Shown piece after piece: positions 5,070 through 62,339 of a stretch of 64,000 nucleotides of DNA (its first letter is position 1; every line of letters starts with the position of its first letter). The translations under genes and the position numbers were made by a program. The notes below the pieces were generated by a model. That model did no database searches, had not been told where the DNA came from, and worked only from the letters and a program-made list of their open reading frames with translations. Source of the DNA: Podarcis cretensis. Taxonomy: Eukaryota. The stretch spans positions 100,254,001 through 100,318,000 of the forward strand of contig OX638149.1 of the NCBI GenBank assembly GCA_951804945.1. The letters run 5' to 3'.

Positions 5070-5407
5070 GTTGTTGTTTAGTTGTTTAGTCGTGTCCGAC
5101 TCTTTGAGACCCCATGGACCAGAGCACGCCAGGCACTCCTGTTTTCCACTGCCTTCCGCAGTTTGGTCAAACTCATGCTAGTAGCTTCAAGAACACTGTC
5201 CAACCATCTCGTCCCCTGTTGTCCCCTTCTCCTTGTGCCCTCCATCTTTCCCAACATCAGGGTCTTTTCCAGGGAGTCTTCTCTTCTCATAAGGTGGCCA
5301 AAGCATTGGAGCCTCAGCTTCAGGATCTGTCCTTCCAGTGAGCACTCAGGGCTGATTTCCTTAAGAATGGATAGATTTGATCTTCTTGCAGTCCATGGGA
5401 CTCTCAA
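5070..5407 (-). mobile_element. 5'-truncated BovB (RTE-clade) LINE, 3' end
   Basis: The minus-strand ORF gives RVPWTARRSNLSILKEISPECSLEGQILKLRLQCFGHLMRREDSLEKTLMLGK..., the typical BovB C-terminus. It has a (CAA)n-type tail and an 11-bp TSD GAAGCTGCCTT at 5059-5069 and 5408-5418. Confidence 0.93.
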
Positions 5408-8400
5408 GAAGCTGCCTTTATAATGAATCAAATGGTTGGTTCACTAGTGCAGCTCTCCAATCTCTCTGGCTAAGACCTTTCACAAGTTGCAGTCATTTAA
5501 GTGGAGATGGCAGGGTCTGAAGCTAGGGCCACATGCATGCACACTGCCACTGACCTAGATTAGCACCTATTAATTCACATTATGCTAGTTGTCTAATTTA
5601 ATGTCATATTGGACTCAAGTGTAAATCATTGTAGCAGAGTATCTTAAAATGTTTTCCCTTAGTGTGCTTATTTTAATGAGAAAACACGAGCCTTAAACCA
5701 TTTCATAATTAAGCAAATCCCAAATCTTCTGAAATCTCTTCTGTTCTGTCCCAGATAGCTATACTGATGGAGGACCAAGGAGGCCACTGTTATGGCCTCC
5801 TGAAACATAATTGTATTCACCCAGCAGGTGCTGCATTAGCTTGAAATACCTTGGCCGTAATGCTATAATCAATAACCTATGTGGATTTTGCAATAAACTG
5901 TTAAATGAGCTTGAGTAGATAACAAAATAGAGATTTGGGCAGGTGGTATTAATGGGAATAACAAGTAAAAGTTCTTTTGCAATTACATGGTCTAAAGTCG
6001 GTGAAAACTGTTTCTTCAATTAACACTTCCAATCAACCTTATATTAAATTCAGTTAATTAAAACTTTTAGTAATCCTCACACAAAAGAGGTTAGCACCAT
6101 AGCTCGAAGACACAAAACTGGATGTTACATGAGGTGTAAGAAATGATATTATTATGAAGGAGTACAGGACCTTTAAACAATTAAACAGTATTTTGTTATT
6201 TTTTGTATGTCACTTTAACAAAAGTGTATAGACTTGCTCTTTCAGTGTTTGAATTGTCATTTATTGGTATCTACGATGTCCCAGAGGAAGACACACCTTT
6301 GAGATGTCTCTATTGATGCACATAATTTATTTAGGCATGTCAAATTGACAGTGTTGCCACAGACCATCAGTTCATTCCTATACAGTTTCCAATATAGTGC
6401 AATGTGTGATGGAGGCAGGAGATTCCCCTTTCCCCCTTTCCCTTTTAAAGGAATTGCTATACCTTTTCTCCCAATGTACACTATTTCCATTTCATTATCT
6501 AATTTATTTACATTTTTTCAGATTGTATTAAAACTCCTTGCAGTGCTTTGCCTAAATCACAACAGTTTTGGTTAATTTTGCTAAAGGCAAAAGCAAGAAA
6601 CAAATTGTTACACTTCACTGTATCCTTCTTATCAAAAAGAGCACCTTTCCTTTGCAAGATTTACCAAAAAAAAGTCATCTATGAACCTACCTCTTTAATT
6701 GTGATTGAGTGAGAGAACAAACAGGCAGAACAAGTGAAGGATATAGCATAACCCATGTATTACGTTGACATATTTGTTATATAGACTATAAAGAGGACTG
6801 ATTCCTCCTCCCAGTAGTTACCTGGGGCTGCCCTATAACCAGGATGGGGAACTAGTGTAGGACTCATTTGCCATCAACCCAAGCCAACATGGCTGATGGG
6901 AGCTGTAATCCAAAAGTATCTGGAGGGCCACAGGTCCCTCACCTGCATTTTATAATGCAAAATTTGGACATTGTTATTTGGGAAATGCCATAGCTGCATG
7001 AAACCATCAACATCCTGATCCAGCAAGGGAGATTACCATATGAAAACTGGGCTTTGCCCAGATAGCCAATGTGCATGTGGATCTGAACATCTTTGTTCAG
7101 GCCTACTGAACCGTTTGGGTGCTATTGCTGAAGTGCATTCCTATCGAGAGCCACAAATTGACCACAGCACCTGTGTGCCTGCTCTGTCTGCTGTCCAAGT
7201 ACTAATAGTTGATGGACAACTTCAAAGCCCCTGCTCTACCTTTCTCATGCTTCTTTGCCTTTAGACTGGACTTAGCCTGGATTCCTTCTGGCAGAAATTC
7301 AAATCAAGGGTTGTCCTCTGTAAAGTTGTACATATGGGCATCCTAGTTTCCTGCTTGCCTAATCCCAGTGCCAAAGTGATTACTTCCCACACCAGTTTCC
7401 CAATGGCTGAGGCAATGCTGGCATGGAAAGGGGTCGTTTTGTTAGCTCCTCTCACTTGACTTTATATTACTGTATAACCTGTACCTAGACTGTCACACTT
7501 CAGTCTAAAATTCTCTCCAGAAATCTTTATTTGTAGCGAGAAGCATTCAGCCATGTGAGTCATCCACCTATAACCTGAAGTTGTGCAGTCAAGATTCCTG
7601 CTTAGCACTTCATCTCCCACATGTGAGAAATAGATTGGTTGTCTTGTTAACTCATACCGGCACCTTCTGAGCCTTTGTCTGCTTACTCAGAAGTAAGTGC
7701 CATGAAGTTCAGTAGAACTTCCTCCCTCATTAGTAGGTTTAGTACTGCTGTGCTAATATAAGAATGCAACAAATGCTGGTTGCCAGAAGAAAAAAAAAAG
7801 CACAACAGATTATCACATTAGAATGCCACTTATTTAAGTGACTATTTCCATATAAAATAATTTATTGCACAGATTGGAAAGCATCAAATGCTTCCCTAGC
7901 ATTCCAGTGACTGGCATGCATCTTTGTTCCTACTAGTACCTTGGGAATTCTTTTCCCTTTTCAGTGAAAGGTTTTAGGGCACCCCCCCACACACACCTTT
8001 TGACACTTTGACAGCTTACAGATTCACACTGGAATATTGTTATCTTTTTCATGATACAATCGCCTGCAATGTCATCACAGCATAGGGTGAGCTGAGGGGG
8101 GTTGAGTTCACAATGCGCCTTCTGCAAGATGCTACTTAATGCGTTTTATAAAATCCACTGATGATATATATGCCAGTGATTTCTAATGAACCTAAGTTGG
8201 TCAACATGAGTAATTGCCTTTATACCAACACCAAAACCCCCCACATTATTTCTGTTTTCATTGCAAACAGTAAAGAGGGCAATTAACTCTATATTTTTAG
8301 AATCAGGAATCTAATATTTTATATATGCAATGGTTGTTCTCAAACTATGAATTACTTCAATTCATTTGCCATATAATAATTTTTATTTCTGACATTGATA

Positions 8401-8574: not shown

Positions 8575-8692
8575 CATAGAATTGTAGCATTGGAAGGGAC
8601 CACCCCCTACAATGTAGATATCTTTTGCCCAATGTGGGGCATGAACCCACGACCCTGAGGTTAAAAGTCTCAGGCTCTACCACCTGAGCTAT
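8575..8692 (-). mobile_element. tRNA-Lys-derived SINE copy
   Basis: Reverse complement of the head (GCCCAATGTGGGG...GAACCCACGACCCTGAG...CTCTACCACCTGAGCTA) and tail (CATAGAATTGTAG...TTGGAAGGGACC). Confidence 0.8.
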
Positions 8693-9854
8693 TATGTAGG
8701 TGTGGAATCATGTCCCTGAATGCCGCCCCACTTCAAAGTCTCCTTGTGTGAGCAATGCAAGCACATTAGGGAAAAGAGTCCTCAGTCCTGCTGAATATTT
8801 GCATTCCACAGAGTTCCACAGAATTCAAGTATGTTCACCTGAGATCAGCTGGTCTTCCCTCAGTATGTTAAGGACTGCAGCAAGAAGCTGCCATCCTGCA
8901 GCTGCTTGCAGCCACAAATGTCCTAGTGATTACAATGGGAACTAGGGACACATAACTCTGAACATGACTGAAACCCTAAGAGTACAATCTAGCATATTTA
9001 AGGTTCCATTGATGAGATTTAAACGGATCTAACTGTGCACTAGATAGCACCCTCTGGGCAGCATCAATCACATAGCTTGCTCTGTCACCACCATTCATTT
9101 CATAACTCCCTAGTGCTTTGTGGATTATTCCTTGAACGTTTTAAAGAGCTGATTTCTGGCAAAACACAAAGATGGGAGAGCAGCCTTTACCATTTTGACA
9201 ATATCAAGTAACTTAGTTTCTTATTTTCAAACCTGGATGTTTAATTAATTCTGCGTAATGGTACTTATTATAAATTTAATGGAAGCTATTTTTATGGGAC
9301 AGTTTAATATGCTTGTGTGCTAAATATACACAGGTGCTCGAAATGTATTTCATTTGACCCATTAAACTATCAAAGGTAGTTGTGCTTGAGTTCCATCATG
9401 AATTTGTAAGCTATAATGTTTAATTGATAGCCCCCTAGATTCCATACCCTGCTGTAACAGCCTATAACTATCTACCCAGGCAAAAAGGGAGTAGCACACT
9501 CTATTAGTGGTTCATTTGCTTGGTTTTCAGGAAGAGCCAGCCAAGACTGATTGCCAATGGCAGACACTGTGTCTGACTTTACCATCAGCCCCACAGGGGC
9601 TTAAAAGGAATGTTGCCTAAGGTGACAGGCCTGCTACTGCCAGGGTCACCACAAGTAGGTTGACACCAAAGGAATTTGTCCTTAAGAAGTCTCTTTGAGA
9701 GACACTAGGGCGAGGACAGCACCCCTTAGTAATTTTGACTCCCTGATTGGGCTGAATTCTTGGTGAGAGGCAGGAGCAACTGGAAGTGTGTGTGTATGTG
9801 TTTGACCTAGCCTTTTGGTAACAGAGAGAATTGCTGGGGAATTATGACCTAGTA

Positions 9855-19298: not shown

Positions 19299-19540
19299 CA
19301 GTGGTACCTTGGTTCTCAAACAGCTTAGTTGTCGAACAAATTAGCTCCTGAATGCTGCAAACTCGGAAGTAAGTGTTCTGGTTTGCGAATGTTTCTCGGA
19401 AGCCGAACATCCAATACAGCTTCTGCTTGAGTGCAGGAAGCTCCTGCAGACAACCGGAAGCCACGACTTGGTTTTTGAATGGTTCCAGGAGTCGAATGGA
19501 CTTCCGGAATGGATTAAGTTCAAGAACCAAGGTACCACTG
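19299..19540. mobile_element. Non-autonomous Tc1/mariner-superfamily (pogo/Tigger-like) MITE, subtype A
   Basis: TIR CAGTGGTACCTTGGTTCT / AGAACCAAGGTACCACTG flanked by TA on both sides; 242 bp. Confidence 0.9.
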
Positions 19541-31360: not shown

Positions 31361-31495
31361 CATAAAATCATAAAACTGTACAGTTGAAAGGTACCATGAG
31401 GGTCATCTAGTCCAACCCTCTGCTATGCTGGAATCTTTTCTTGAACCCATGACCCTGAGATTAAGAGTATCATGCTCTACCAACTGAGCTATCCC
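31361..31495 (-). mobile_element. tRNA-Lys-derived SINE copy, apparently nested in an older AT-rich repeat
   Basis: GAACCCATGACCCTGAGATTAAGAG...CATGCTCTACCAACTGAGCTATCCC head and GGTCATCTAGTCCAACCC tail. Confidence 0.82.
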
Positions 31496-32444
31496 AGATC
31501 ATGAAAATAAAGTACATAATGCATTGTATCAGGATAAAATGCTTGTAAAAATGTCCACATTAGTCAAAACTACATTAAAAAATGGGTTTTATTGGGAGAA
31601 ATTTGCACCAAAGTGTTCAAGAATTTTCATTTTTTTTTTTAATTGCAAATTCTTGCAGAAACGTCAAGAACTGAATTTAAGGTTGGAAAAATGAGAAAGC
31701 TGGAGAATTGAAATTGGCCAATCCTTTCATTTCTGGATGGCAAATACGTGTGTGCACTGACATAAAAACAAAGATGCAAATCTTTAGAGTTGGTTTGCAT
31801 GGGGTTGGGGGTCCTGCTAGCTTTCAGGTATCAGTTTAAACCCCAACCTCCATCTTAAAGAGCATTACCAGAAGGCTCTTAAAGTTTGCAGCTAATACTC
31901 ATCTGCTCCAACTAGCCTTAATTAGTCATAAGCACCAACTATTCTGAGCATGATCTTTCTAATGCGGAAATCCTCAAAAACCTCTCAGCTCACACAGCTG
32001 AGTAGGTTCCCCCCTATGCATACTTATCTAGTACTTTGAGATTCAGTAATTTTTGAACTTCCCTGTAATTCCCATATTCACCCATCTCAATCAGAACATG
32101 ATGATTCTTAATCAGAATGATACTTATATGCAGGTGCAAGTAACCATATGAAGACACCATTGTGCAAATTGTATTTAAGTTAGGAACTTCTTACGTTCTG
32201 CAATGGTTGATCCCCTAGTTAAAACATTCCATCTTCTCCAGAACACAGATATGAAAATTGATACTGAGCTGAAATTTCCTGGTGGGTTCTAGCCTTATTT
32301 AGGGCCCTTCCAGAACGGTGCTTTATTTGGCAACATGTTTTTGACACATCGCTGGTGGATATTTTCTGCATTAATTTGCTCTGCAATGCTCCTCCAATGC
32401 TACCACTGTGTTGCTGTCTAGAGGGCTTATAGCACAACTAAAGC

Positions 32445-32803
32445 TTCCGGAGGCGGCGCGAACGGCAATGGCTGCCCTCTTCTAATCGGGAGAGGGAAGC
32501 TCCGCTGAGACGGGTCGTCCGCTGCAGCGAAGCGGAGACCCATTTTGGAAAACCACAGGTGGCAGAAGCCTGTGGTCTTGGGACCCGGCGGGCGCCAGGA
32601 GCAGTCCCCAAAACGTTGAGGGAACCCCGTAAGGGGCTCCGGATCGCGGAGGGGGTTGCGGCGCTGTGGGTCGTTCCGCAGTCAACGGAGCGAAGCCGCG
32701 TTGCTGCTGCCGGTGAGCGCTGACCTTTCTTCCTAAACTTCTGATTTGGAAAGCAACAATCCGTGAGTAATAAGGATCTTACAAAACTTTGAGACCTAAA
32801 AAA
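32445..32803 (+). mobile_element. CpG-rich retroposed insertion with 17-bp TSD; probable L1 5'UTR-derived or unclassified non-autonomous retroelement
   Basis: Perfect direct repeat TATAGCACAACTAAAGC at 32428-32444 and 32804-32820. A6 sits before the 3' copy. About 30 CpGs in a CpG-poor background. The family call is inference. Confidence 0.75.
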
Positions 32804-34788
32804 TATAGCACAACTAAAGCCAAGCAAAACTAAATCAGGACATTAGTAGTAGTATAAGTTGTGGGCTTTCAACAGGCCGTTATAGCAGATGCAAACAGTA
32901 AATAAAGCTGTGTGAAACAATATTGAATCTGAGATTACATATGACTGCCCCAATAGCTTCATTAGCATGAATCATCATGAATGTGCAGTGAAAAAGGACA
33001 TCTGGAGGGGCCCTTCCTTGAGGTCCTGTTCTTTACAAAATCTCTATTATTCCTGTGGTGTGTGCTGATTTCACGGTGTGATAGCTGTGTCTCAAGCGCT
33101 GCATTTAGTTGCACCATTGAGCAAACATTTTCTTGTGTGAACCAGTTTTGGCAGCCATTAAGGGTATGTTGCAACTAACAACTGTAGCTTTCAAAGCATA
33201 CCCATGAACATTGTAAATACCTTTGAACATTGATCTGTTGCTTGCTCTACTAATTTCCTCACACAGAGGTTTTAATCAGGATTCAGCAAAAGTGTCAAAG
33301 AGCGTTTGATTTTACCATTCTATTTCTGTTTCACATTGACATTTTGTTCTGTACAAGCTGCTAAGTTATTCTTCTGTCATCATCATCTTCTTAACATAAT
33401 GCTACCACTTGATAGTGAGTAGTAAGAACTATATAGCTGAACAGATGAATAACAGTGTAACAGTTTAGGGTGGAAGGAACATATTTTGACTGCAGTATTT
33501 GCCATTCTGCATTGTTCTGTCTTAGAATTCGCTTTGTTCGGGCTACCTTCCAGTGCTACTATGCCAAGCCTGAAAATCAGAGCCCTTTACTTTGTCAGTC
33601 AGAAAGCTATTCCATCCACATGCAGGTTTATTTGTTTTCAGGTAGATATAGCTGGTTGAACCTCCAGCTATATTGCATTATGTTATGTGAGGCCATGGTG
33701 TGGGGGGAAGATTTTCCCTCGAAACAAATAGCCGACATTCCTAAATCCTTTGAGGGTCTGGCATTATCCATGCTGACTGATACGTGCTAAACAGTGTCCA
33801 TGGTTGCAGGCAAAAGCAGTCCAGTGCTTTTGGATCCTGCTTGTGGTGGCAGGGGTGAAGATGGGAGAAGGAACTTGAAGAATGATGACTGTCATTGATT
33901 TCTTATCAGATGATGCAAAATTACAGACAGATCTTCAAACTGCATCTCATAATCAGTGTTTTATAGCTTAGAGATGTAAATTGCTCAATTGACTTCAATT
34001 GATAATGTTCCTAAGTAGTGCCCTTATAAGGCACTTGAGAGGTAGTGGTGAATTTTCATTTTGGGGGGTGTCCTTCCTTATTTCTGCACTGTTTAGCACT
34101 GTAATTTCCTTTAGCTGGGAGCTAAAAATATAAATATGTGTGTGAGAGACCTGGGACCTTTTTAACTTTGGAAACTTTGGTTTCCCAGACCAAAGTGTCC
34201 TCATATCTTAGTCTGAAACAGCTGCTTGCTCAATAAAATGGGGTGAAAGAGTGGGTAGAGATCACAGTGGTAATAAGTAGGCATTGAAACTGCAGAAGGA
34301 AAATTTGTGAGCGTGTGTGTGAGAGAAGGTGGGTGAGTGGGTGAGAATGAATAAGAGAGAACAAATAAGTTGCCTGGTCGTTCTGGAGTTACTGAATTGA
34401 AGAAGAGCCCCATGAAGGCAGCTGCTCTAGTGCAGGTGAGAGTTCAGCAGGACATGAACTCTGTTTTAGATTACACAGAGAAAGAAATAGGCAGTGTGGT
34501 GTAGTAGCCAGAGAGCTGGACTAGGACCTTAACGGCGATGGTAGAAGAACCTGAGAAGGAAAACAAAAAAAGGTGACTTAGAAAAGCAAAGAATGTCAGC
34601 AAGAGATGCACCTGAGCTTGCTGACTCTAAGACAGGCAGCAGAGAAATCAGCATTTACAACAACAAGCAGCTGTAACACCTTAAACCGGGGGGGAAACTG
34701 AACTGTGATGGGAATTAACTTCAGTCACTGAAAATACTTAACAGGGATAATGTGAACCTTTCCATCCAGAAAGAGATTTAGTTCTTTC

Positions 34789-37501: not shown

Positions 37502-37590
37502 CATAGAATTGTAGAGTTGGTACTCTAACCTACTGCAATACAGGAATTTTCCACCCAATGTGGGGCTTGAACCCACGGCCCAGAGAGTCT
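37502..37590 (-). mobile_element. Partial tRNA-Lys-derived SINE
   Basis: CATAGAATTGTAGAGTTGG tail and CCCAATGTGGGGCTTGAACCCACG T-arm segment. Confidence 0.7.
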
Positions 37591-39290: not shown

Positions 39291-40192
39291 GCTACAAGCT
39301 GAGAAAACTCAGGCTGTTCAATATTTGGTAAAGCAATAACCCAGCAGACCTCTTAATTTTAAACATTTCTAGTTATTTGTCCAATAACATAGTTGTCTTA
39401 AAATTATGTTCTCTTCGCACAGTACATGTTTTACATTGAGCGACAGATGATTATTATCCACATTCTGATATTCAATATAAGTTAAATAAATAGACTGAAT
39501 TTTTTTAATCCTTCCTAGAGAATACAACTTTACACATTCATGATTTTCAAGCAGAATGATGCAATTTTAAATACGTTTTTTGAGACAAATGGGCTGTGAA
39601 CTGACGGTTTCTGCTGCATTCTTTATTTAATATATTGGAAAATATAGTTGAAGTGAAAGCACAATTGTGTGCCCTTGAGACTTATTAAACATAAGGAACT
39701 ATCATCATCATCAACAACAACAATGGCTTTTTATATGTCTATTAAATATGTTTTCCCCATAAAGTTTATTTCCTTTGCTTTAGCCTTAGGAGCACACAAA
39801 AATAGAAGATTTTTTTGCCATAAATAAGTTTTAGAAAAATATGCATGGTTTTAGAAAAACACACAATGTGTTGTCTAATTTTAGGAGGGAGGATTTGATA
39901 GATGTTATGTGAGCTATTGGAGGAAATGACACTGTAATGGAATTCTTGTGTAGCTGCATACGTATTACATTTTCTGCACATCTTTTGGCAAGTCCGTAAT
40001 GAATCAATGAATTTAAACACTACAATACTTTAAGAACAGTGGATGAAATCCAGCATGTTCCTTAGTGATATGTGTGTGTCCTTTGATTTTTGCTTTTTTG
40101 GGGGGGGAAAATGTTGTTTTACCAAAGTATTTCTGCAGAGCTGTTCACTTGGATGATTGATTATGTATAATTTTGCATGTTTTCCCTGGAAG

Positions 40193-40326
40193 GTGTATGA
40201 GGCAGTCCCATGTTACAGTGAATGCAATCAGTATTCCTGGATAGCAGAACCATGGTCTCCTTGCGAAATCAACAGCGAGCTAAACTCCCTGCACTGTGGT
40301 GAAGGAATACAAACTAGAAAAATAAG
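40193..40326 (+). CDS. THSD7B: Internal coding exon of thrombospondin type-1 domain-containing protein 7B (134 nt, phase 0 to 2): VYEAVPCYSECNQYSWIAEPWSPCEINSELNSLHCGEGIQTRKI(R)
   Basis: Acceptor tttccctggaAG at 40191-92 and donor GTgagt at 40327. The frame is open with TSR motifs (WxxxxWSxC, CGxGxQxR). It matches recalled vertebrate THSD7B (VPCYSECNQYSW) and is in phase with the next exon. Confidence 0.95.
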
Positions 40327-40855
40327 GTGAGTAGATATAAAAACAGTAGGTTTTGAACAGAAACATTAAGAAACTGAACTCTATAGACCCACAACCAGCC
40401 TTTGTAATGCTTTTCTATGTGATGAGAAATGTGCCTTCATCTTTCTACAGCCATTTCTAGAGTTCTGGAATAGCCTTTCTGGTCGATATTGTAGAAGAGA
40501 TGCATGAAATAATGCTGGTCTGTAGGGCGAGAACCCTGTCCCAAATGGTGTGAACACATCTCTACTTTCAGTAGCAGAACTTTATTCAATTAATTGTAGC
40601 ATTTCTACACAGTGTGCTTAATATTGCCTTTCACCTTTTCTGCTTCCGTACAAGAGGCATATGGCAAAAAACAAATATTCTGAGAGGTAATAAAATGATA
40701 AAGCAGTCAGAAATTCTGTGTCATGAATATAAATGCATGCACAGACCACTTACAGCACTACAAAAAAATTGTTTGTTGTTGTTTTTTTTAAAAAAAGACT
40801 GATTTAATCTCTTTGTTCTTGATGGGATGCTCACTTCACATTTTCCCCTCTGTAG

Positions 40856-41653: not shown

Positions 41654-44589
41654 ACAGTACAATTAATATACCCAGTGGTTGGATAGCCAAAGCCAAACCA
41701 AGAATTTGTTATGTTCTTGCCATTAAACTTGGCCCACTGAAGTATTTTGAAATCTCCCACCTGGAAGAGTTTTGTATGCTGCTGTTAAATACAATGTAGT
41801 CAGCTGGAAACTATGTGAAGGCAGATATCTACAACAGTGATTTGGTTTACGCATGGGCACTGCCACCCATGTAAAAACATTATCATAAATGCAACCTTTG
41901 TTTGGAAATGAGTTTTCAGCTATTCCACCAGTCCTGTTTGATGAATATAATAATCATATTTCCTCAGAGCCCAAGCTAATGAATGAGCTGAGAATCCAGG
42001 CATCTCTAAAGGGTAAATTGGTAAAAGTACTAATTAGTGATGCAGGTACTCTCCTGTGGCATACTCGTTGGCCAAAGGATTAGTGTGAAGACACACATAT
42101 TGACAATTTGATGAGGATTGTCATAAAGAACATTTAAGAATTAGCTAGCATTTGGTAGGTTCAATAGCTACTCCTTTATTAATTATTATGGAGAGGTATC
42201 TTGCAAATTAGTTTCCCCTCCTTATCTATAACCTATTTCTTAATTTTTTCTTATTCCTTTGTTACAGCTGCCACCAAGTACTAGTACCGTCTGTTTTCTA
42301 TTTCAGTTTAACCACCAGTATGTACTTATGGATAAGCATAGTGCAAAGATCTGAATATGAAATACAAAGTAGATTTAGTTTATTTATAACAGTTATGAAT
42401 ATAAATATATACTGTTTGTATGCACAGGTGCTTCATAATTAGATTGCTCCTTTTTGTTATAGTTGCTTTAAATAAGAATGCTTACACTGTATGGTTACTG
42501 TCACTATAGTAAATACAACCAAGGGGTCCTTAAGACAATAGTTATGTGAGTTTCCATTCCTTCCTCTATCCAATTTCCCTGTATTAATCCACCTCAGTTA
42601 ACACTCAGCAACCAGTCACTGTGGACTATACTTGCAGTCTTCAGTCAGGTCCACAGTTTCTTCCCTCTGTAGTCTCTCAGGCCTCTCTTAGGACATCTGC
42701 TGCAGTCTTCCCTCTGCCCCAGGTTTTCAGCAATTCCACTGGCACTTAGCTGCAGAACTCTTCTGAAGGCTGCCCTTGGAGTTGAACAAACCTCCTTCAG
42801 CTCTAGCCAGTGATGTCTGCTCTCATCTCCTCTCAGGCTTCAATAAGCCTCTCTGAGCCACTTCTTTAAGTCCTTCTATTTCCACTGTATGAGTCCAGCT
42901 ACCAGCTGAGCAGCAGCCTCTGTCAGTAACTCCCTATATTTTGACCAGACCCTGGCCTTTTTATTATCTCTAGCCAGGACCACCCAAGGCAAACATTTCA
43001 ACTTGAGTGGAATTCTGCCCCCTCGTGGGCCTGTGAACTATAATAAGTATGTACTTGGCAAGCTCTATTTCTCACTGTATTGGGCATTATTTTATTTTAT
43101 TTTTTTGGCTTCCTCCACCCCAGAATGGTCTTTTTTTCAATGACTGGGAGGGTGAGGGAAACCAATCATTGTAAATCTCTGTGTAGTACCAATATCATGG
43201 ATATGACATTGTGCAAGTCTAATGAGGAAAAAAAACCACATTGTTGATATAAACATACTTCAGCAAAGGCAAAAATAGCCATGTGTTGGTCTGGGGAAAA
43301 ACTGTTTTAAACAAAAATGTTTCGAATGTGCCAGCAATAAATTGGCTGAGTTTGTTAAAGCTGACAGTATATGAGATTTGCTATGTGGTGCTACATGTAC
43401 AATCTGCTAATCAGGTTGCAGCTTTTCTTCTCTACAACTGCTCAGTTACAGAATTTTAGTATTTAGGGTGGTGCAGAAGGTCTGGGACTCTGATGGTTAA
43501 AGATTGGGTCATGTGGAGAAAGGGATAACTGCCCTTTCCTCATGTGACCAATTACAGCCCTATCAGGGCCTTACACTCTTGCTATTTAAATAATAAAAAT
43601 CAGATGCATCAAATTCATACACACATTTAACATATCATCCATCTTGGCCCTACCTATGCCACATTAGTATAGTTGTTTCTTGTATTATTTATAATCTAGT
43701 CAAATATTCCATTTCCTTCTTCCTACCAAAGGACCAGCTGGGGAATTCTTCTATCCAGACTGGATGCACATCTTGTCTGTTTCAATAAACATTGGCAAAT
43801 TAAAGCGAAGCACCTTTTTCTTCAGAGGCTTCATATTAATTCCAGTGACAATGGTGTGTTCACACATCATCACTTGATTGCTTCTTATTCACAAACAACT
43901 GAAAGGCTATCGTCTCCCCTTAAATATTCACCATTGAAGTAACATAGCAGTACCTGTCGTGTCCTGACTCCGTCTTCATCTGACTTGGAAATGTAATTAA
44001 TTGACTTCAGTTGAATTCGTCAAAGCATTCTTAAACTGAGCTTAATATGCAAGTTGCGCTACAAGTCCCTGAAATAATTATCTCAGATATATTGCATCAG
44101 CTGTCAGCTTTCTTGCTTGCAACAATTGATAACCCCAATAGCAGATCTGAGTGGCCTCCTTGTTCTCAGCAACTGTTAACATTTACAGTAGTTAATTCAG
44201 GAGGGTTTGATAACAGTTCATTTAATTATGTAAATTTATAGCACAAGGAACAGAATGAAAGAAGAAATGCTACTGTTCCTTGTGGATCAGCCACAGCTTC
44301 GTGGACTTATATGCATATCAAGTAGGCTTAGATTTTCATAAATCAGATATAAGTTCCTGAATTATTTGATGGATGACTCTGAAAACAGAAGAAAGACACA
44401 GGTTCACATGTCAGTGGTTTGTTTTTGTTTTTTTTACTGCATCCCCTGGGTATTTTGGGTCATAAATCTGAATTTTTCCAAACTGAAACGAGATTAGTAG
44501 CTTAATTCGTTTTCTTAAATATCACTTTTACAGAGTCACTTGAATGGCTGTGGCACTGGAACTTACAAACAAACAGCAAAAATAGTATA

Positions 44590-44814
44590 CAGTGGTACCT
44601 CGGGTTACATACACTTCAGGTTACACACTCCGCTAACCCAGAAATAGTGCTTCAGGTTAGAACTTTGCTTCAGGATGAGAACAGAAATCGTGCTCTGGTG
44701 GCGCAGCAGCAGCATGAGGCCCCATTAGCTAAAGTGGTGCTTCAGGTTAAGAACAGTTTCAGGTTAAGTACAAACCTCCGGAACGAATTAAGTACTTAAC
44801 CTGAGGTACCACTG
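44590..44814. mobile_element. Tc1/mariner-superfamily MITE, subtype B
   Basis: TIR CAGTGGTACCTC...GAGGTACCACTG, TA TSD, 225 bp. Homologous to the copies at 54528 and 57589. Confidence 0.9.
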
Positions 44815-44816
44815 TA

Positions 44817-44950
44817 CTCAGGAGGGCATAAGACTCTTAATCTCAAGGTCATGGGTTCAAACCCCACCTTGGGCAAAATATTCCTGCACTGCAAAGGGTT
44901 GTACTAGATGACCCTCGAGGTACATCCAACTTTAAAATTCTGTGATTCTA
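44817..44950 (+). mobile_element. tRNA-Lys-derived SINE with CR1-like tail; 5' end abutted or interrupted by a MITE
   Basis: GACTCTTAATCTCAAGGTCATGGGTTCAAACCCCACCTTGGGC, then CTAGATGACC and an ATTCTGTGATTCTA tail. Confidence 0.82.
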
Positions 44951-52943: not shown

Positions 52944-53547
52944 GTGAGGTTTCATGTATATCACTAGGATGTGCCATGTAGGACTTGTGCCATGTAGGAC
53001 AGAATCTGGCTTTCCAGCAAAGCTTGGTTTTTTAAAAATCTCATCTGTCTCATTAAATGAGTTGAAATTTTCTTTGTAATTATTTATTCCTCTTGCTGCT
53101 GTCTGGTTACCATGCAGCTTGGTATTCTGAATCTTCTAGATATGGTTTCATTGCAGTCCTAGGATCTTCATTTGTAGCCTGTGTAGGAATGAAGAATTCA
53201 GGATCCAAAACCCAAGAAAGACACATTTAGGGCAAAACCTGAAAAAATTTTAGGCCTACACCCGTGTTACACAATTGGCTTTTTTAATTCTTCTTTTCAT
53301 TAGATGCAGGAGTGACTAGCAAGTGGTCTTTCAAAGGTTTTGCCACTGTTATTGTCCTTGTCTTTGAAAGGAATGTGCAAGGTGGATGCAACACACACGA
53401 GTTATACAGTACAAGGCTATAAAGCCAGGATAGGGGATGTTGCTCGACTGCAACTCTCCTCATCACTGTTCATTAACCATATTGGCTGGGATGGATGAGA
53501 ACCAAAGCCCAACAACATCTGGAAGGACACAGTTTTCCCACTCATAG

Positions 53548-53680
53548 TAGCTCAGTCGATAGAGCATGAGACTCTTAATCTCAGGGTTGTGGGTTTGAGC
53601 CCCATGTTGGGAACGTTTCCTGCACTGGGGGAGGGGCTAGATGACCCTGGTGACCCCTTCCAAATCTACAATTCTATAAT
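53548..53680 (+). mobile_element. tRNA-Lys(CTT)-derived SINE with CR1-like 3' tail
   Basis: TAGCTCAGTCGATAGAGCATGAGACTCTTAATCTCAGGGTTGTGGGTTTGAGCCCCATGTTGGG is close to tRNA-Lys(CTT). It is followed by the CR1-type tail CTAGATGACC...CCCTTCCAA...ATTCTAT. Confidence 0.88.
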
Positions 53681-54076: not shown

Positions 54077-54527
54077 GTAACCGTCCGTCAATGTTCTATC
54101 TACGTTTCTTAGAATAGAAATATACTATAAAGCACACCATCAATAATAAATGCTCCGTTTCTGATCACAAGGTTATGAAATTACATAGGCTTAGATCCAG
54201 AGACAGGCTGGAAGAAGGGGCTGAGGGGAAGGTGATTTTCTTCCACATGTGCTCTCTTAGTGACAGTTCTTTTCCTGCAGAGGGTGTGAAGTAAGGGACT
54301 GCAGACCTTATCTGTGGTGAGGTCTCTGGAGCTTACTGGTGGGTGATTCCCGGAATACAGCATGCCAGCTACAAAGTTAGATGACCTTAGTAGCAGCCTC
54401 ACTCATTCAGGCGGACGTTACTGAGGCAGACAATGGACAGACTTCCTCATCTTCTGTCCAAAAGTCATAAGGATATTCAGATGCTGCCAATACATAAAGG
54501 AAGAGCTCCCATATCTTGTGCATAATA

Positions 54528-54769
54528 CAGTGGTACCTCAGGTTACGTACACTTCAGGTTACATATGCTTCAGGTTACAGACTCAGCTAACCCAGAAATA
54601 GTACCTCAGGTTAAGAACTTTGCTTCAGGATGAGAACAGAAATTGTGCTCCGGCAGCATGGCGGCAGCAGGAGGCCCCATTAGCTAAAGTGGTGCTTCAG
54701 GTTAAGAACAGTTTCAGGTTAAGAACGGACCTCCGGAACGAATTAAGTACTTAACCCGAGGTACCACTG
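54528..54769. mobile_element. Tc1/mariner-superfamily MITE, subtype B
   Basis: Same TIRs, TA TSD, 242 bp, with one extra 17-nt internal unit. Confidence 0.9.
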
Positions 54770-55424
54770 TAATATAGGCAGTGATGCATTTGATATCATG
54801 TGTCCCCTCTTTAAGTGGGGGCAATATATAATTGAGTCTTGCTGCAGATGTGAAGCTGGGATTTTTCATTACATCTGCAAGTCTGTTGCCCAAATCAGAC
54901 TTGGTGTGAGACTTTTTTTTTCTTCTTCAAGAAGCACAATGGAAATAAATTGGAATAAGCACTTTTGTAAAATGAAAGATAGCCATATTCAGTTTCTGTT
55001 ATCAATACCAATGCCCACAGCACCTCTGCCATATACATCATTTCACAAACTATGGTATAAAGTTTATATCATGGTGATATATTTTAGTGGCCCATGGGAC
55101 TGCTCCAGTTGTTTTCAGTTCAGGCTTTATGTTGTGGAACAGTACACAAAATATGGTTTGCTGCTGTTGCTGCACTACAGGTGGGAGGTGTTTTCCGTGA
55201 CTGGTGGTAAAACGTTTTGATTTCTTTCTATAGCTTTCGACCAACAGAATTGTGTGTGTGTGTGTGTGTGTATCCAGCCTAGTTCTATGCAGCCCATTTA
55301 AAGTAAAATATGAGATGTTTCCGTAGCTGTACATTGTTCTGTGGATACCATTAGCTCTCAGTGAATATTTATTTATATAAGCATTGATGTAAAAGGCAGT
55401 TCAGCAATTCACACTAGCACAATG

Positions 55425-56257: not shown

Positions 56258-57588
56258 CTATAAACAATTCTCAATGGCCTGATGGTCTTTTCATTCCTGT
56301 ATGTGGCAATTTCTTGAGGCATACAATAATATACACCATACTACTGGTAGCAAGAAGCCTAATTTGCTTCTTGGGCACAGGAAGAAAAATACTTGCCCAT
56401 ATCAATATTACTAGTTTCTATGTTTGAATATATGAAAACATCCTCCAGATTCTTGATGCATCTGAATCTAAATCTTGCAGGTCGATAATGCCCTGATATA
56501 ATGTTCAAAATTTGCCCATGTTTTTGGTATAGTTTGTTTATCTAATATAAAAGCAGGAAGTGCAGCTACACTGGGCACTTAAACCAGTTCAAATATTAGG
56601 GCTCCCCACCTCCACATATTGTGATTCTTTTAATTTTTTTTATTTGCAATTTCTCCCTCCAACACAAAACTACAATTTTCAAAGTTCAGTGTTTAGGACA
56701 TAGTAGTTTAGAGCATTTACAATTGATCCACATTTCTAGTGCTGGTGATGTGTCCAAAGAGAGCCTTTATTTCAAACCAAGGTTGAGGCAACAGGTTTCA
56801 GTGCTGACAATAGTCAGAAAGAAGGAAAACATCCCCCCCCCCCCATTCTTGCTGCCACTAGATGTTACTAGAATATAGGAAGAGCAGCAGAGTAGTGGTG
56901 AACATAAACTGAACTTAAAGATTCCACATACACAGATAATCCCATGGGAGGCTGTCTCTTTCAGAAAACTCCTTTTAAACCTGAGTCACTCACTGCTTTC
57001 ATTGTGTAATGATTTATTTATGGTATGTACAGAAAGATGATGGCAGAGAAGAGACAAACCCAAGAAGAACAGGGTGAACCTGTGAGGTTTTTTTCTGATC
57101 AAAAATAGCTCTTAGGGAAATATTTCAGGTGGTGGTGCAGCTAGGGATCCCAAAAGCCTTTGGCACACAAGGTGATCTCATGGGCCCACTATGCCATCAA
57201 GTGCTTATGCCATCATTGCATAGCAGTGCCAAACTGATAGCAAAGTAAACAAAACAAAACAAACAAACGAAGGAACAAGTTTCAGTTGCACACCAGAAAC
57301 TGCCAATCTGCCAGTTTTTTGCATTAGAACAACATCCTTACAAATGAATTTATAACTTTAACTTCATAAGGTTATTGTTTCTCCACAGGATCTAAGCCAC
57401 TTGGCCCTTGCCTGTTAGGGTTTGCTGTTCATGCAAAGTGACCCCTCACCATGTTTCCATTCATGTGATCCTAGTTCTCTAGACATGGCATCACAGGGCA
57501 AGAGGCCTTGTGCTGGCAGAGTTTAAGAGTCCCACAACAAAGAAATCCAGTGCAACAGTTACACCAGCAGATGCTGGTTCTTGTTGTA

Positions 57589-57820
57589 CAGTGGTACCTC
57601 AGGTTACAGACACTTCAAGTTACAGGTTACAGATTCCGCTAACCCAGAAATAGTACCTTGGGTTAAGAACTTTGCTTCAGGATGAGAACAGAAATCGTGC
57701 AATGCAGCATGGCAGCAGCGGAATGCCCCATTAACTAAAGTGGTATCTCAGGTTAAGAACAGTTTCAGGTTAAGAACGGACCTTCAGAACGAATTAAGTT
57801 CTTAGCCCAAGGTACCACTG
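57589..57820. mobile_element. Tc1/mariner-superfamily MITE, subtype B
   Basis: Same TIRs, TA TSD, 232 bp. Confidence 0.9.
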
Positions 57821-59563
57821 TATTGCGCAACAATATTCTGCCAGTGCAGGAATGCCCCTCAGTAACCTTAATTAAGTGACAACTTCCCTTGTCCCACTGT
57901 TTTCCCCTGGAGAAAACCACTCTTTAGTGCTCAGTTGGAACAAACAGCAATTCATCCCCCCCCCCCCCGCAAATTGCTGTTTGTTCTGATTTAGAGCTAA
58001 AGAGCAGAAAACCACTTGGATGTGATTTCTAGGCATGGGACAACCAGAAGTATGGATGAGTCCGTAGTGTTATGCATTGGATACAACCCAGTGATACAGC
58101 CCAGTGACACATATATTGATATATGAGATCTAACTTCCTTATTTCAGTCTTTGTATACTCCACATTCTGTACCTTGATTGTATACTGTGGTGGCCAGAAT
58201 CCTTTTGGAGGGGACAGTGAAGGCAATGGTGGTGGGGCATTTATTTTGGGCACTCTATTGATCTCACTGAAGGTGTTCTAAAATGCTACCTCTTTTGCAA
58301 GTGTAACGTTATGGCAACATCAGTAGCAAATCTGATCTCTGTGCAAGAATAGAGTTACAACTAAGAACCAGTCTTCCCCACCATTCCTTGAACCCATTTT
58401 TCCTTCTTGTGCTGTTGGTGTTCAGCCACTGGCAGTAGTTCCTGTTGATGGAATGGCAGAATTCTACTACTGTGTCTTTTACTTCTGACCGTGCAATGGG
58501 AATGAGGGGTCACCACCATCCCAAAAGGCATTTGGGCAGTGGAGTTATTGTTTTCCTGCTAGAAGGATGCTGCTTGTGCTGTTTAACTTGCTCATTCACA
58601 ACTTATGCAAAATCAGAGGTGTTTGCAGATGGAACCAAATTACTGCGATGAGGAATGTTTTACTCAACACATAACTTAAGTTGTAGAATTCATATTTACA
58701 AGATGTGGTGACGTCAAGTAGTTTAAATGGTTTTAGTAATGGATAAGGCAAGTTCATGTGGGACGGCTGATCAGTCATTGTCTATTTTCCATGGTAGCTA
58801 CAAATCGATTCTTAATGTTCCAAATATGATCTTCCCAGGACAGCCAGCTCTCCACTACTGTAGGCAGAATACTAGGCAAGATGGACTTTGAATATGATTG
58901 ACAGAAGGGCGTCCCCAGCATATTAGCAAATAGGATGGTTGCAGCTGTTGTTAGAAGAGTGTTTCTCCCCCCCGGAAGTGAACATTTACAATTTAAGAAC
59001 TATGTATTTTTTCCCAATTTGCCAAAAGGATATGCAAATAACAGCATGGATAAAAGCAAAGGACTTCATTAATTTCAAACAGTTTTTCAATATCTTGCCT
59101 CAATAGACTTAACTTAAAAGACAGTTCTGAGTATAAAATGCTGGGGTTCTTTGTCAATTTCTAAGGAAACTGGTGGAACACCAAGGCTCCTGAGAAAACT
59201 CTAAAGCTATGAGTAAAATAATAATATTGGCTATTATCCCATGTATGGTTAGGCTGCATAAATTCCACTGAAGCCAAGTAATATGCAAAATTGTAACAAT
59301 CATTAGAAAGAATCCTTTACCAAAGATTGAAAACTGCCACTTAACTTGTTGAGTTCTGTGGCAGCATTTCCATTCAAACTCCACATGCAATTTCCCAGAA
59401 GAATCCAATTAAAATGACTTTTTTTAAAAAAAATAAAATAATAATTTGCAGACTTTTAAAAGAATGAGTCGTGAAATCACACTAATAAAAGGGAAAAGAA
59501 ATGGAAACGGGAAACCATGGACTTCAAGCTATATCAGAATGCACATAATGAAATTCCCTGTTA

Positions 59564-61006
59564 ATAGAATCATAGAGTCATAGAGTTGGAATAGACCACA
59601 AGGGCCATCGAGTCCAACCCCCTGCCAAGCAGGAAACACCATCAGAGCACTCCTGACATATGGTTGTCAAGCCTCTGCTTAAAGACCTCCAAAGAAGGAG
59701 ACTCCACCACACTCCTTGGCAGCAAATTCCACTGTCGAACAGCTCTTACTTCAGGAAGTTCTTTGTAATGTTTAGGTGGAATCTTCTTTCTTGTAGTTTG
59801 GATCCATTGCTCCGTGTCCGCTTCTCTGGAGCAGCAGAAAACAACCTTTCTCCCTCCTCTATATGACATCCTTTTATATATTTGAACATGGCTATCATAT
59901 CACCCCTTAACCTCCTTTTCTCCAGGCTAAACATGCCCAGCTCCCTTAGCCGTTCCTCATAAGGCATCGTTTCCAGGCCTTTGACCATTTTGGTTGCCCT
60001 CCTCTGGACACGTTCCAGTTTGTCAGTGTCCTTCTTGAACTGTGGTGCCCAGAACTGGACACAGTACTCCAGGTGAGGTCTGACCAGAGCAGAATACAGT
60101 GGCACTATTACTTCCCTTGATCTAGATGCAATACTCCTATTGATGCAGCCCAGAATTGCATTGGCTTTTTTAGCTGCCGCGTCACACTGTTGGCTCATGT
60201 CAAGTTTGTGGTCAACCAAGACTCCTAGATCCTTTTCACATGTACTGCTCTCAAGCCAGGTGTCCCCCATCTTGTATTTGTGCCTCTCATTTTTTTTGCC
60301 CAAGTGCAATACTTTACATTTCTCCCTGTTAAAGTTCATCTTGTTTGTTTTGGCCCAGTTCTCTAATCTGTCAAGGTCTGGGGTGTTAGCCACCCCTCCC
60401 AGTTTGGTGTCATCCGCAAATTTGATCAGGATGTCCTTGAGTCCATCATCCAAGTCGTTGATAAAGATGTTGAATAAGACTGGGCCCAAGACAGAACCCT
60501 GTGGCACCCCACTAGTCACTCTTCTCCAGGATGAAGAGGAACCATTGATGAGCACCCTTTGGGTTCGGTCAGTCAGCGAGTTACAAATCCACTGAGTAGT
60601 AGCATAGTCAAGACCGCATTTTACCAGCTTCTTTACAAGAATATCATGGGGCACCTTGTCAAATGCCTTGCTGAAATCAAGGTAGGCTACATCCACTGCG
60701 TTCCCTTCATCTACCAGGCTTGTAATTCTGTCAAAAAACGAGATCAGGTTAGTCTGACATGACTTATTTTTCAGAAATCCATGCTGACTATTGGTGATCA
60801 CAGCATTCCTTTCTAGGTGCTCACAGACTATTTGCTTAATGATCTGGTCCAGAATCTTCCCTGGTATTGATGTCAGACTGACTGGGCGGTAATTATTTGG
60901 GTCCTCTCTTTTCCCCTTTTTGAAAATAGGGACAACATTTGCCCTCCTCCAGTCTGCCGGGACTTCGCCTGTTCTCCAGGAATTCTCAAAGATGACTGCC
61001 AGTGGT
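59564..61006 (-). mobile_element. 5'-truncated CR1 LINE: ORF2 reverse-transcriptase domain to 3'UTR, disrupted
   Basis: ORF 59746..61074 has [28 protein letters not shown] and KFADD. A frameshift near 59750 continues the C-terminus in ORF 59642..59869 (VRAVRQWN...SLEVFKQRLD). 8-bp tail units (ATAGAATC/ATAGAGTC) lie at 59564-59590. Confidence 0.96.
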
Positions 61007-62339
61007 TGTCTGTTGTCTGAATTATTACCTATGCAGTTGTTGCTGCTGCTAATTATTAGATTTCTATATACCACCCTTCATTCGAGGATCACAGGGCAGT
61101 TTGCAATATAAATGAATCTGTTTTTAATAGTGGTAGATACATGTTTTCTTCACCCAAGCATGCCTGCTATGTGTTGTTAATTAGTAGCAGCTGATAGAAA
61201 TGCTTCACTGTTTCCTTAATTAAACTCATTTTTAAGTTCCATCTCTTTAGGCAAAGGCTTAATAGAACTGATGACAAACTAGCATATTGTGCTGCTTTCA
61301 TGTTCTTCTATGGCAAGTTAATCAATAAAGATAAGGTGGATCATAATGAAGTATTGCAGAAGCAAAAAATCCTTATTATTAAGCTCATTTCCCCTTTCAT
61401 AATTAACCTTAATGAAAATGTTGGCTTGCAAAGTATATAAATGCAGAATATAAAGTAGTGCTGGTGAACTTGTTTAGTCACCCCCTTGTTTATATTTTAG
61501 GTTAATCATATATTTATTTTAAAACATATCTTAGCATACTTTCTGGTGAATATTTCTTTGTATATGTGATAGACTTCATTAAATCTCAAAATCATGATGT
61601 AGAGGGGAATATTCCCCAAAATTAATAATTATGGCAGTGCTGTGTTTCACAGTAACAATTGCCATATGTTTCCACTGCCTCTTTCCCCCCTCCAGATGAA
61701 GTTTGAGTTTTACGACCAAATTACATTTATTGTTGCTGAAAAATTGCAAGCATTGTAATGGCCATTACTGTCCATAACCACTTTTACAATTTCCATTAAG
61801 AACCTATTTATTTTCAGCGAAATATCCCTAACTCAGTGAATAGAAAAAGAAATTAGGTTACCATTTCTGGAATAATAGTGCTGAATGCCATTCATTAAAG
61901 TATCAGCTATCTCATTTTTTAATCCTCTGCTGCCCAGGCACAGAGGACGACCCAGAGAAGAAATGTTTTCTCTTACACTATTCCAATTAGAAGACAGCTT
62001 GTTATTGAAATGGAAAGAGTTTCCTGAATGGTAGCTGTGTAATTCGGAAGACTGTGTTAAACTGGCAGGCTTTCTGTCTTTATCAAGTTGAGTAACCAAC
62101 AGAGGCTCTCATTAAGGGAAGGAGAGGGCAGAACTGCCAGAGCCGTATGCAAGAAACATCCTATTACAGTCTTCAGACACTGAATGTTCATATGCTCTCA
62201 TTAGTATAACACCACCATTGGTATTATAGCTCCAGCAATGTTCTGCAGGCCCAGGACTTTGCCTTCTTGCAGTGGTTCCCCATTAGCTTGGAGGGAGGGA
62301 GGGGGGGCTGTTCCATCCTTCTGCCCCAAAGGAAATGCC

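Follow-up and report, generated by a model that had tools for sequence, protein, structure and literature searches.

Genomic setting and structure of the insert

The window, by which we mean the whole 64,000-nucleotide stretch of Podarcis cretensis DNA that was analyzed, contains six + strand coding segments between positions 40190 and 62937 that match residues 1058-1328 of THSD7B (tblastn of P0017). One THSD7B exon is 86% identical to the Varanus protein and 80% identical to the Anolis and Pogona proteins, and a search of the PDB with the host exon returned 0 matches. Together with a Bov-B-like fragment in the window, these identities speak for a squamate. Upstream of these segments lies the insert that is the subject of this report. 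It is oriented in the same sense as THSD7B and is situated about 7.4 kb upstream of the next mapped coding segment, which is found at 40190-40351 on the + strand (76% tblastn identity to residues 1058-1111; these are alignment bounds and not exact exon ends). Since no THSD7B segment of more than 55% identity maps to positions 1-40189, we infer that the insert lies within a long THSD7B intron.

An exact repeat comparison places 359 bp between two identical 17-mers at 32428-32444 and 32804-32820, the left and right target-site duplications, and this pair is the sole exact repeat of at least 17 nt with a spacing of 60-1000 bp within the 64-kb window. The insert has a GC content of 58.8% and contains 31 CpG dinucleotides, giving an observed/expected ratio of 1.01 versus 0.18 for the window. 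It consists of two parts, a GC-rich stretch of 280 bases followed by 80 AT-rich bases (GC 40%, then 28%), and its 3' end is a run of six A residues (A6) at 32798-32803. All 31 CpGs fall inside 32444-32763, and 30 of them inside 32444-32723. These data bear out the description given in an earlier sequence-only reading of this DNA, namely a 359-bp insert between perfect 17-bp direct repeats that ends in A6 and carries about 30 CpGs in a CpG-depleted window.

The features of the insert are all given here on the + strand. Its GC-rich CpG-island head (32444-32723) is likely the internal promoter and start of the 5'UTR of an L1 parent element, as discussed below. When the whole insert is folded as RNA, the predicted structure is more stable than those of 100 out of 100 shuffled sequences (z -4.2), and the predicted stability resides in the head (-143.9 kcal/mol), which would form multiple hairpins. 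The head opens with CTTCCGG (32444-32450), which we take to be an ETS-type motif. The sequence-only reading had the insert begin with this motif, and the motif is indeed there, but its first C (32444) doubles as the final base of the left duplication; we accept this 1-nt overlap because related copies begin at 32443-32444. The YY1-like motif ATGGCTGCC, which the same reading had located at 32468, is present at 32468-32476 and holds the only ATG of the insert, which opens a frame of 5 codons. Two predicted 5' splice sites are retained, CCG/GTGAGC at 32713-32718 (7/9 consensus positions) and TCC/GTGAGT at 32763-32768 (6/9 consensus positions). The AT-rich segment 3' of the CpG island (32724-32797) differs among related copies yet is collinear with them. 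It includes AATAAG (32769-32774), a weak variant of the poly(A) signal located 23 nt upstream of the A-run, which is the only one of 19 signal hexamers scanned for that lies wholly within the insert.

Searches of the insert for tRNA A and B boxes, for inverted repeats with arms in the insert, and for Pfam matches to its three longest frames found none, in agreement with the sequence-only reading, which had seen no tRNA boxes, no terminal inverted repeats and no reverse transcriptase similarity. A tRNA search was likewise empty, and Rfam gave no family at gathering score, with two sub-threshold chance matches. The lack of A and B boxes and of small-RNA similarity in the Rfam and tRNA searches speaks against a SINE derived from tRNA, 7SL or 5S RNA. 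Protein searches with two insert frames gave nothing at E 0.01 among 2054 and 104 candidates, and a search with insert frames gave nothing at E 0.001 among 1.84 billion representatives. A second copy was not found within the 64-kb window (best E 0.78), and pattern scans of viral_contigs and metagenome_contigs returned 0 matches.

The empty site and the age of the insertion

We compared the region 32150-33100 with the contigs of four of 24 listed sequencing runs. Three of these (X2, X5 and X10) are DNA-type runs; the fourth (X15) is classed as RNA-type by guess only and is no evidence of expression. All three DNA-type runs contain an empty site, in which a contig joins 32427 to 32804 and carries one 17-mer, and the empty-site contigs have full flank depth. 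The sequence-only reading had proposed to look in orthologues for an empty site with a single 17-mer, and its presence in X2, X5 and X10 indicates that the duplication was made by the insertion. The flanks differ from the window at 2 of 575, 5 of 575 and 12 of 565 bases in the three DNA-type runs, with X2 being the closest run. Because an empty site is present in a run with flanks that are 99.65% identical, the insertion is young and postdates the split of the window haplotype from one that is 99.65% alike. The filled allele was not seen in the reads of the 24 listed runs, none of which has more than 0.65 of the sampled words, a share close to that expected from the flanks plus paralogous copies. 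No RNA run is listed for the stretch.

Older repeat fragments flank the insert at 32342-32425 and 32918-33013, with up to about 17 and 108 flank-units, respectively, and single X5 and X10 contigs connect 32425 to 32918. The old repeat looks as if it had been split by ~116 bp, with the young insert landing there later.

A multi-copy family that shares its 5' end

Contigs that match 32150-33100 number 867, 400, 190 and 22 in the four runs, older flank repeats included. From flank to head, summed contig depth rises from 67 to 64,000-313,000 in X2 and from 20.6 to 26,000-121,000 in X5, sums that are inflated by contig overlaps, and the head has the highest contig depth of the insert. The ratio of the lowest tabulated insert depth to flank depth is 223-514 for X2, 287-1827 for X5 and 5-145 for X10. 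Summed contig depth is no copy number, and we read these values as suggesting that related copies number some hundreds in the two closer runs. Variant sites are widely common to several runs, as judged from 40 of 112 rows listed. Since the sequence is multi-copy and has many common variant sites, a host Pol II transcript, which the sequence-only reading had named as a possible source, is unsupported.

Pieces of the family begin at 32443-32444 in X5, X10 and X15. Upstream of this point, a single-copy X5 contig has 1158 other bases immediately 5' of the head, and five X15 contigs disagree with one another (agreement 0.5). Given that the pieces start alike and that their upstream bases differ between contigs, the start at 32443-32444 is the 5' end of the element and not the interior of an LTR or of a host gene.

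At 32526, 32605 and 32620 the letter of the window copy is at odds with 95-100% of the depth in each of the four runs. More generally, it departs from most related copies at 32509, 32526, 32560, 32605 and 32620. Two of these departing letters look like CpG decay and two are A-to-G changes in strongly folded RNA, for which RNA editing ahead of reverse transcription is a speculative source.

The 3' end

Loose ends are found behind 32734 in all four runs, and three of them have an extra G there. Because the X2 loose end recognizably resembles the next 30 bases of the insert, we regard 32734 as a variable spacer and not as a junction. A diverged X10 contig is collinear with the insert across 32774 and reaches about 32784, and an X15 contig extends 341 nt beyond the place that matches 32734. 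In X5, two contigs match the insert to 32801 and then proceed into GTACTG… and further non-A sequence (agreement 0.94); this continuation is among the six loose ends listed for that run, which are apparently ranked by depth. A further 304 loose ends and 1461 pieces fall outside the listings. Since the X5 continuation behind 32801 is non-A sequence, a longer form of the element exists past the end of the insert, seen in relatives and not in the source copy. The first four A's of the A6 end match this longer form and appear to be templated, and two are extra. Probably templated for the most part, the A6 is weak evidence for a poly(A) tail.

Over the last 45 bases, depth lies below that of the head. 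The depth excess in the last bin of X5 fits contigs that end at 32801 (12.01 positions at depth 5907) and fits A6 ends at 32803 nearly as well (14.06 positions at depth 5045). In X2, depth at the last 12-14 bases is 30-35 flank-units versus 377 at 32753. As rough upper limits, copies that share the 3' end of the insert amount to 30-35 flank-units in X2 and 246-287 in X5.

Resemblance to the heads of lizard clade-1 L1 elements

The available text of PMC5381506 gives GACTTCCGGTGN8ATGGCG as the 5' end consensus of Anolis clade-1 L1 elements and describes clade-1 5'UTRs of 0.8-1.5 kb with two CpG islands. From the visible part of its supplement, nine consensus sequences were assigned to clade 1 by length, and the first 400 nt of each were compared with the insert by eye. 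Seven of the nine heads start with GACTTCCGG, seven have ATGGCG within 25 nt, and all nine have GTRAG at about nt 235-365, an occurrence with a chance of about 0.22 in each head, the heads being related to one another. In the insert, CTTCCGG is followed 17 nt on by ATGGCT, an AAGCTCC lies near nt 55, and GTGAG occurs at nt 270 and nt 320. When 20,000 shuffled sequences were scanned for the motifs in order, a pattern that was chosen after seeing the data, two motifs occurred in 8 and three motifs in 0.

Short exact matches were also found. The 9-mer GGCAATGGC, at the YY1-like motif, is found a single time in the visible supplement, where L1_AC1 begins; GTGAGCGCT, at the first predicted splice site, occurs once, in L1_AC14; and CGAAGCGG occurs three times, in L1_AC14 and in two mammalian L1s. 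Judged against these excerpted sequences, the insert shares with Anolis clade-1 5'UTRs a CTTCCGG start, ATGGC and AGCTC motifs, a CpG island of ~280-300 nt followed by AT-rich sequence with GTRAG, and the exact matches to L1_AC1 and L1_AC14. It differs from them in that no long alignable identity is evident by eye, the spacing from CTTCCGG to ATGGC is longer (17 nt versus 10 in the Anolis consensus), and the insert ends at nt ~355. Since clade-1 5'UTRs measure 0.8-1.5 kb, these 355 nt would be only the first part of a UTR. The copy number of the insert's family also seems far higher, as full-length copies number 22-24 per Anolis L1 family in two examples in the available part of PMC3787681. 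The head of the family is likely of the L1 clade-1 type, a membership that rests on motifs compared by eye.

By eye, all nine of the Anolis clade-1 heads in the visible supplement, as well as the insert, have a donor-like GTRAG just after the first CpG island. The site may mark an intron within the 5'UTR or be a site for U1, and it could explain how spliced mini-L1s would arise. A literature search on donor-like sites in clade-1 L1 heads found nothing. A testable idea is that the 5' end of lizard L1 RNA may be under the control of splicing, or of U1 protection from early polyadenylation.

Literature searches by title and start of abstract found no promoter-only L1 family in squamates, with most subscription papers, Repbase Reports and bioRxiv supplements lying outside their coverage. 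In a full-text search, three short stretches of the insert appeared in no paper's text.

Origin of the insert

The best explanation, to which we assign a probability of roughly 0.6, is that the insert is a young, duplication-flanked, 3'-truncated retrocopy that comprises the first ~355 bases of a longer element, likely the 5'UTR of a clade-1-type lizard L1. The sequence-only reading, which had proposed a retrocopy taken from the 5' promoter portion of an L1-like or host transcript, survives in its L1-like half: the insertion is young and probably target-primed, has an empty site in relatives, and comes from a multi-copy family with a common 5' end. The host-transcript half finds no support, and it is unlikely that the short form is itself a family, which the same reading had put forward as a possibility.

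The parent would be an L1 transcribed from its internal promoter. Its RNA would have ended early, most likely by premature polyadenylation directed by AATAAG, at the A4 run downstream; ORF2p of an intact L1 would then have copied the short RNA through to its 5' end, and target-primed reverse transcription would have left the 17-bp duplication. The same structure could result from internal priming on A4 with slippage, or from a jump or deletion that connects a real poly(A) tail to A4. We narrowly favor premature polyadenylation because AATAAG, the sole candidate signal in the insert, stands 23 nt before the A-run; in our estimation this route carries a little under half of the weight, internal priming about a third, and a jump or deletion about a fifth. 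As a signal, AATAAG is weak, and for a young insertion primed from a poly(A) tail one would expect a run longer than A6.

The target site reads CT/TATA, or TT/ATAG if shifted by one base, which is a poor match to TT/AAAA; this consensus is mammalian, and the lizard preference may differ. Pairing of the parent RNA with the start of the target (5/8 identical) is not significant, with a probability near 0.24 when 7 registers are considered. Bov-B and Sauria SINE sites have a duplication that begins with TA, as here, but the T-run ~10 nt upstream that belongs to such sites is absent, which speaks against a Bov-B/Sauria SINE insertion.

Copies of this kind have been described before, as far as excerpts of the relevant papers go. 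Human L1s that are 5'-intact, 3'-truncated and flanked by duplications number 90, versus 708 full-length elements (PMC5322556). Premature polyadenylation and internal priming are both given as causes (PMC4859970), and the truncation routes are hard to tell apart (PMC5322556). Like the insert, the 3'-truncated or tailless L1s in these excerpts have an intact 5' end, flanking duplications and an end at an internal A-run, and tailless retropseudogenes have been detected in the anole as well (PMC5322556, PMC4859970). The insert differs from them in its two extra A's, its possible poly(A) signal, its target unlike TT/WAAAAWW, and its very short length relative to the parent. With 3'-truncated L1 copies already a known class, the insert is mostly ordinary. 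A single copy of this class is a clean presence/absence marker, and this one would show recent activity of an L1-type family in its lineage.

Alternative explanations

The number of 5' heads, which is very large by depth, lends itself to another account. Here the L1-type promoter head of this lizard group would be a short retroposon in its own right, its RNA repeatedly polyadenylated at one site, AATAAG, or its copies retranscribed from themselves, giving rise to tens to hundreds of A-tailed, TINE-like elements, in the fullest form hundreds of ~355-bp promoters. We consider this unlikely, and keep it mainly because the heads far outnumber the 22-24 full-length copies per Anolis family. The last-bin depth in X5 also fits about 245 flank-units that end in A6, and the letters at 32526, 32605 and 32620 set the insert apart from nearly all of the depth, as if it came from an intermediate source. 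On the other hand, among the best-supported loose ends listed, the sole 3' continuation is non-A sequence, and the X2 tail depth of 30-35 flank-units versus 377 at 32753 leaves room for a few tens of such copies at most. Tarsier TINEs provide a precedent: in the excerpted account, a Pol II promoter together with a poly(A) signal inside the element can give rise to a large family of short elements (PMC5059674). According to the same excerpt, TINEs resemble the insert as short, promoter-bearing retrocopies that are moved by L1 and end at an internal poly(A) signal, and differ in being LTR-derived, in numbering about 29,000 copies and in having a fixed end. If the short form did recur, it would constitute a non-autonomous member of the L1 clade that lacks ORFs, a promoter-only family that spreads CpG promoters and splice donors in the sense orientation into introns; such portable promoters could start chimeric transcripts into hosts like THSD7B.

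Somewhat less likely again is a spliced, ORF-less mini-L1, in which a 5' head is joined to a 3'UTR tail at a GT-AG junction that would be hidden at AATAAG/GATCTT (32774/32775). The AG/G at this position resembles an exon junction, and X2 depth drops in the bin that holds the second donor. Yet both strong predicted donors, at 32713 and 32763, are kept, and the X10 and X5 contigs are collinear, the former across 32774 and the latter into non-A sequence past the insert, so that we see no GT-AG junction that removes the interior and leaves an L1 3' tail. The last 45 bases of the insert are also less deep than the head, where the 3' end of an L1 should be the most abundant part, and they do not end in the terminal AATAAA reported for these L1s in the available text of PMC5381506. 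SpIREs, as excerpted in PMC5860796, are processed retrocopies that likewise bear an L1 5'UTR and duplications, but the insert differs from them in retaining its donors and in having no evident 3'UTR tail. Spliced forms may occur elsewhere in the family.

It is improbable, more so than either of the preceding readings, that the parent is a longer derivative that is not autonomous (HAL1-like or bipartite), or a different non-LTR element whose promoter is similar, and that the insert is its 3'-truncated form. Compatible with such a parent are a head with no observed link to an ORF, a head copy number that is high relative to the Anolis L1 families in the excerpt of PMC3787681, and a target site that is non-canonical for L1, with a duplication that starts with TA. 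Against it, the head motifs accord with the 5' termini of vertebrate L1s, the T-run that forms the other half of the Bov-B signature is absent, and in the available text of PMC5786205 RTE, Ingi, Vingi and R2 are the only groups with reported ORF-less bipartite LINEs. We regard it as very improbable indeed that the insert arose by processed retrocopying of a host gene's first exon, or that it is an artefact of assembly. The CTTCCGG and ATGGC motifs occur frequently where host CpG islands begin as well, and the filled allele is unseen in the 24 runs; but the sequence belongs to a variant-rich, multi-copy family in four organisms, retains its intron donors, has no protein relative for two of its frames, and is bounded by a 17-bp duplication that repeats the sequence of the empty site exactly, which is unlike the product of a mis-join.

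Other elements in the window

The window contains several further repeats. An open frame of 443 codons at 59746-61077 (- strand) has a reverse transcriptase domain (Pfam RVT_1, E 1e-30) and looks like what we presume to be a young CR1 fragment. Another, of 120 codons, at 5078-5440 (- strand) has no Pfam match; we take it to resemble the end of a Bov-B/RTE ORF. Sequences similar to tRNA-Lys are present at 8625-8698 (- strand) and 53542-53614 (+ strand), with related fragments at 31363-31492, 37502-37585 and 44823-44950, and the tRNA-Lys-like sequences are probably the heads of tRNA-derived SINEs. Elements of ~240 bp lie at about 19300-19540, 44588-44816, 54526-54771 and 57587-57822; the one at 19300-19540 is flanked by TA and its ends are inverted, and the remaining three resemble one another at 83-90%. 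They are probably MITEs of the Tc1/mariner type, which are common in lacertid lizards.
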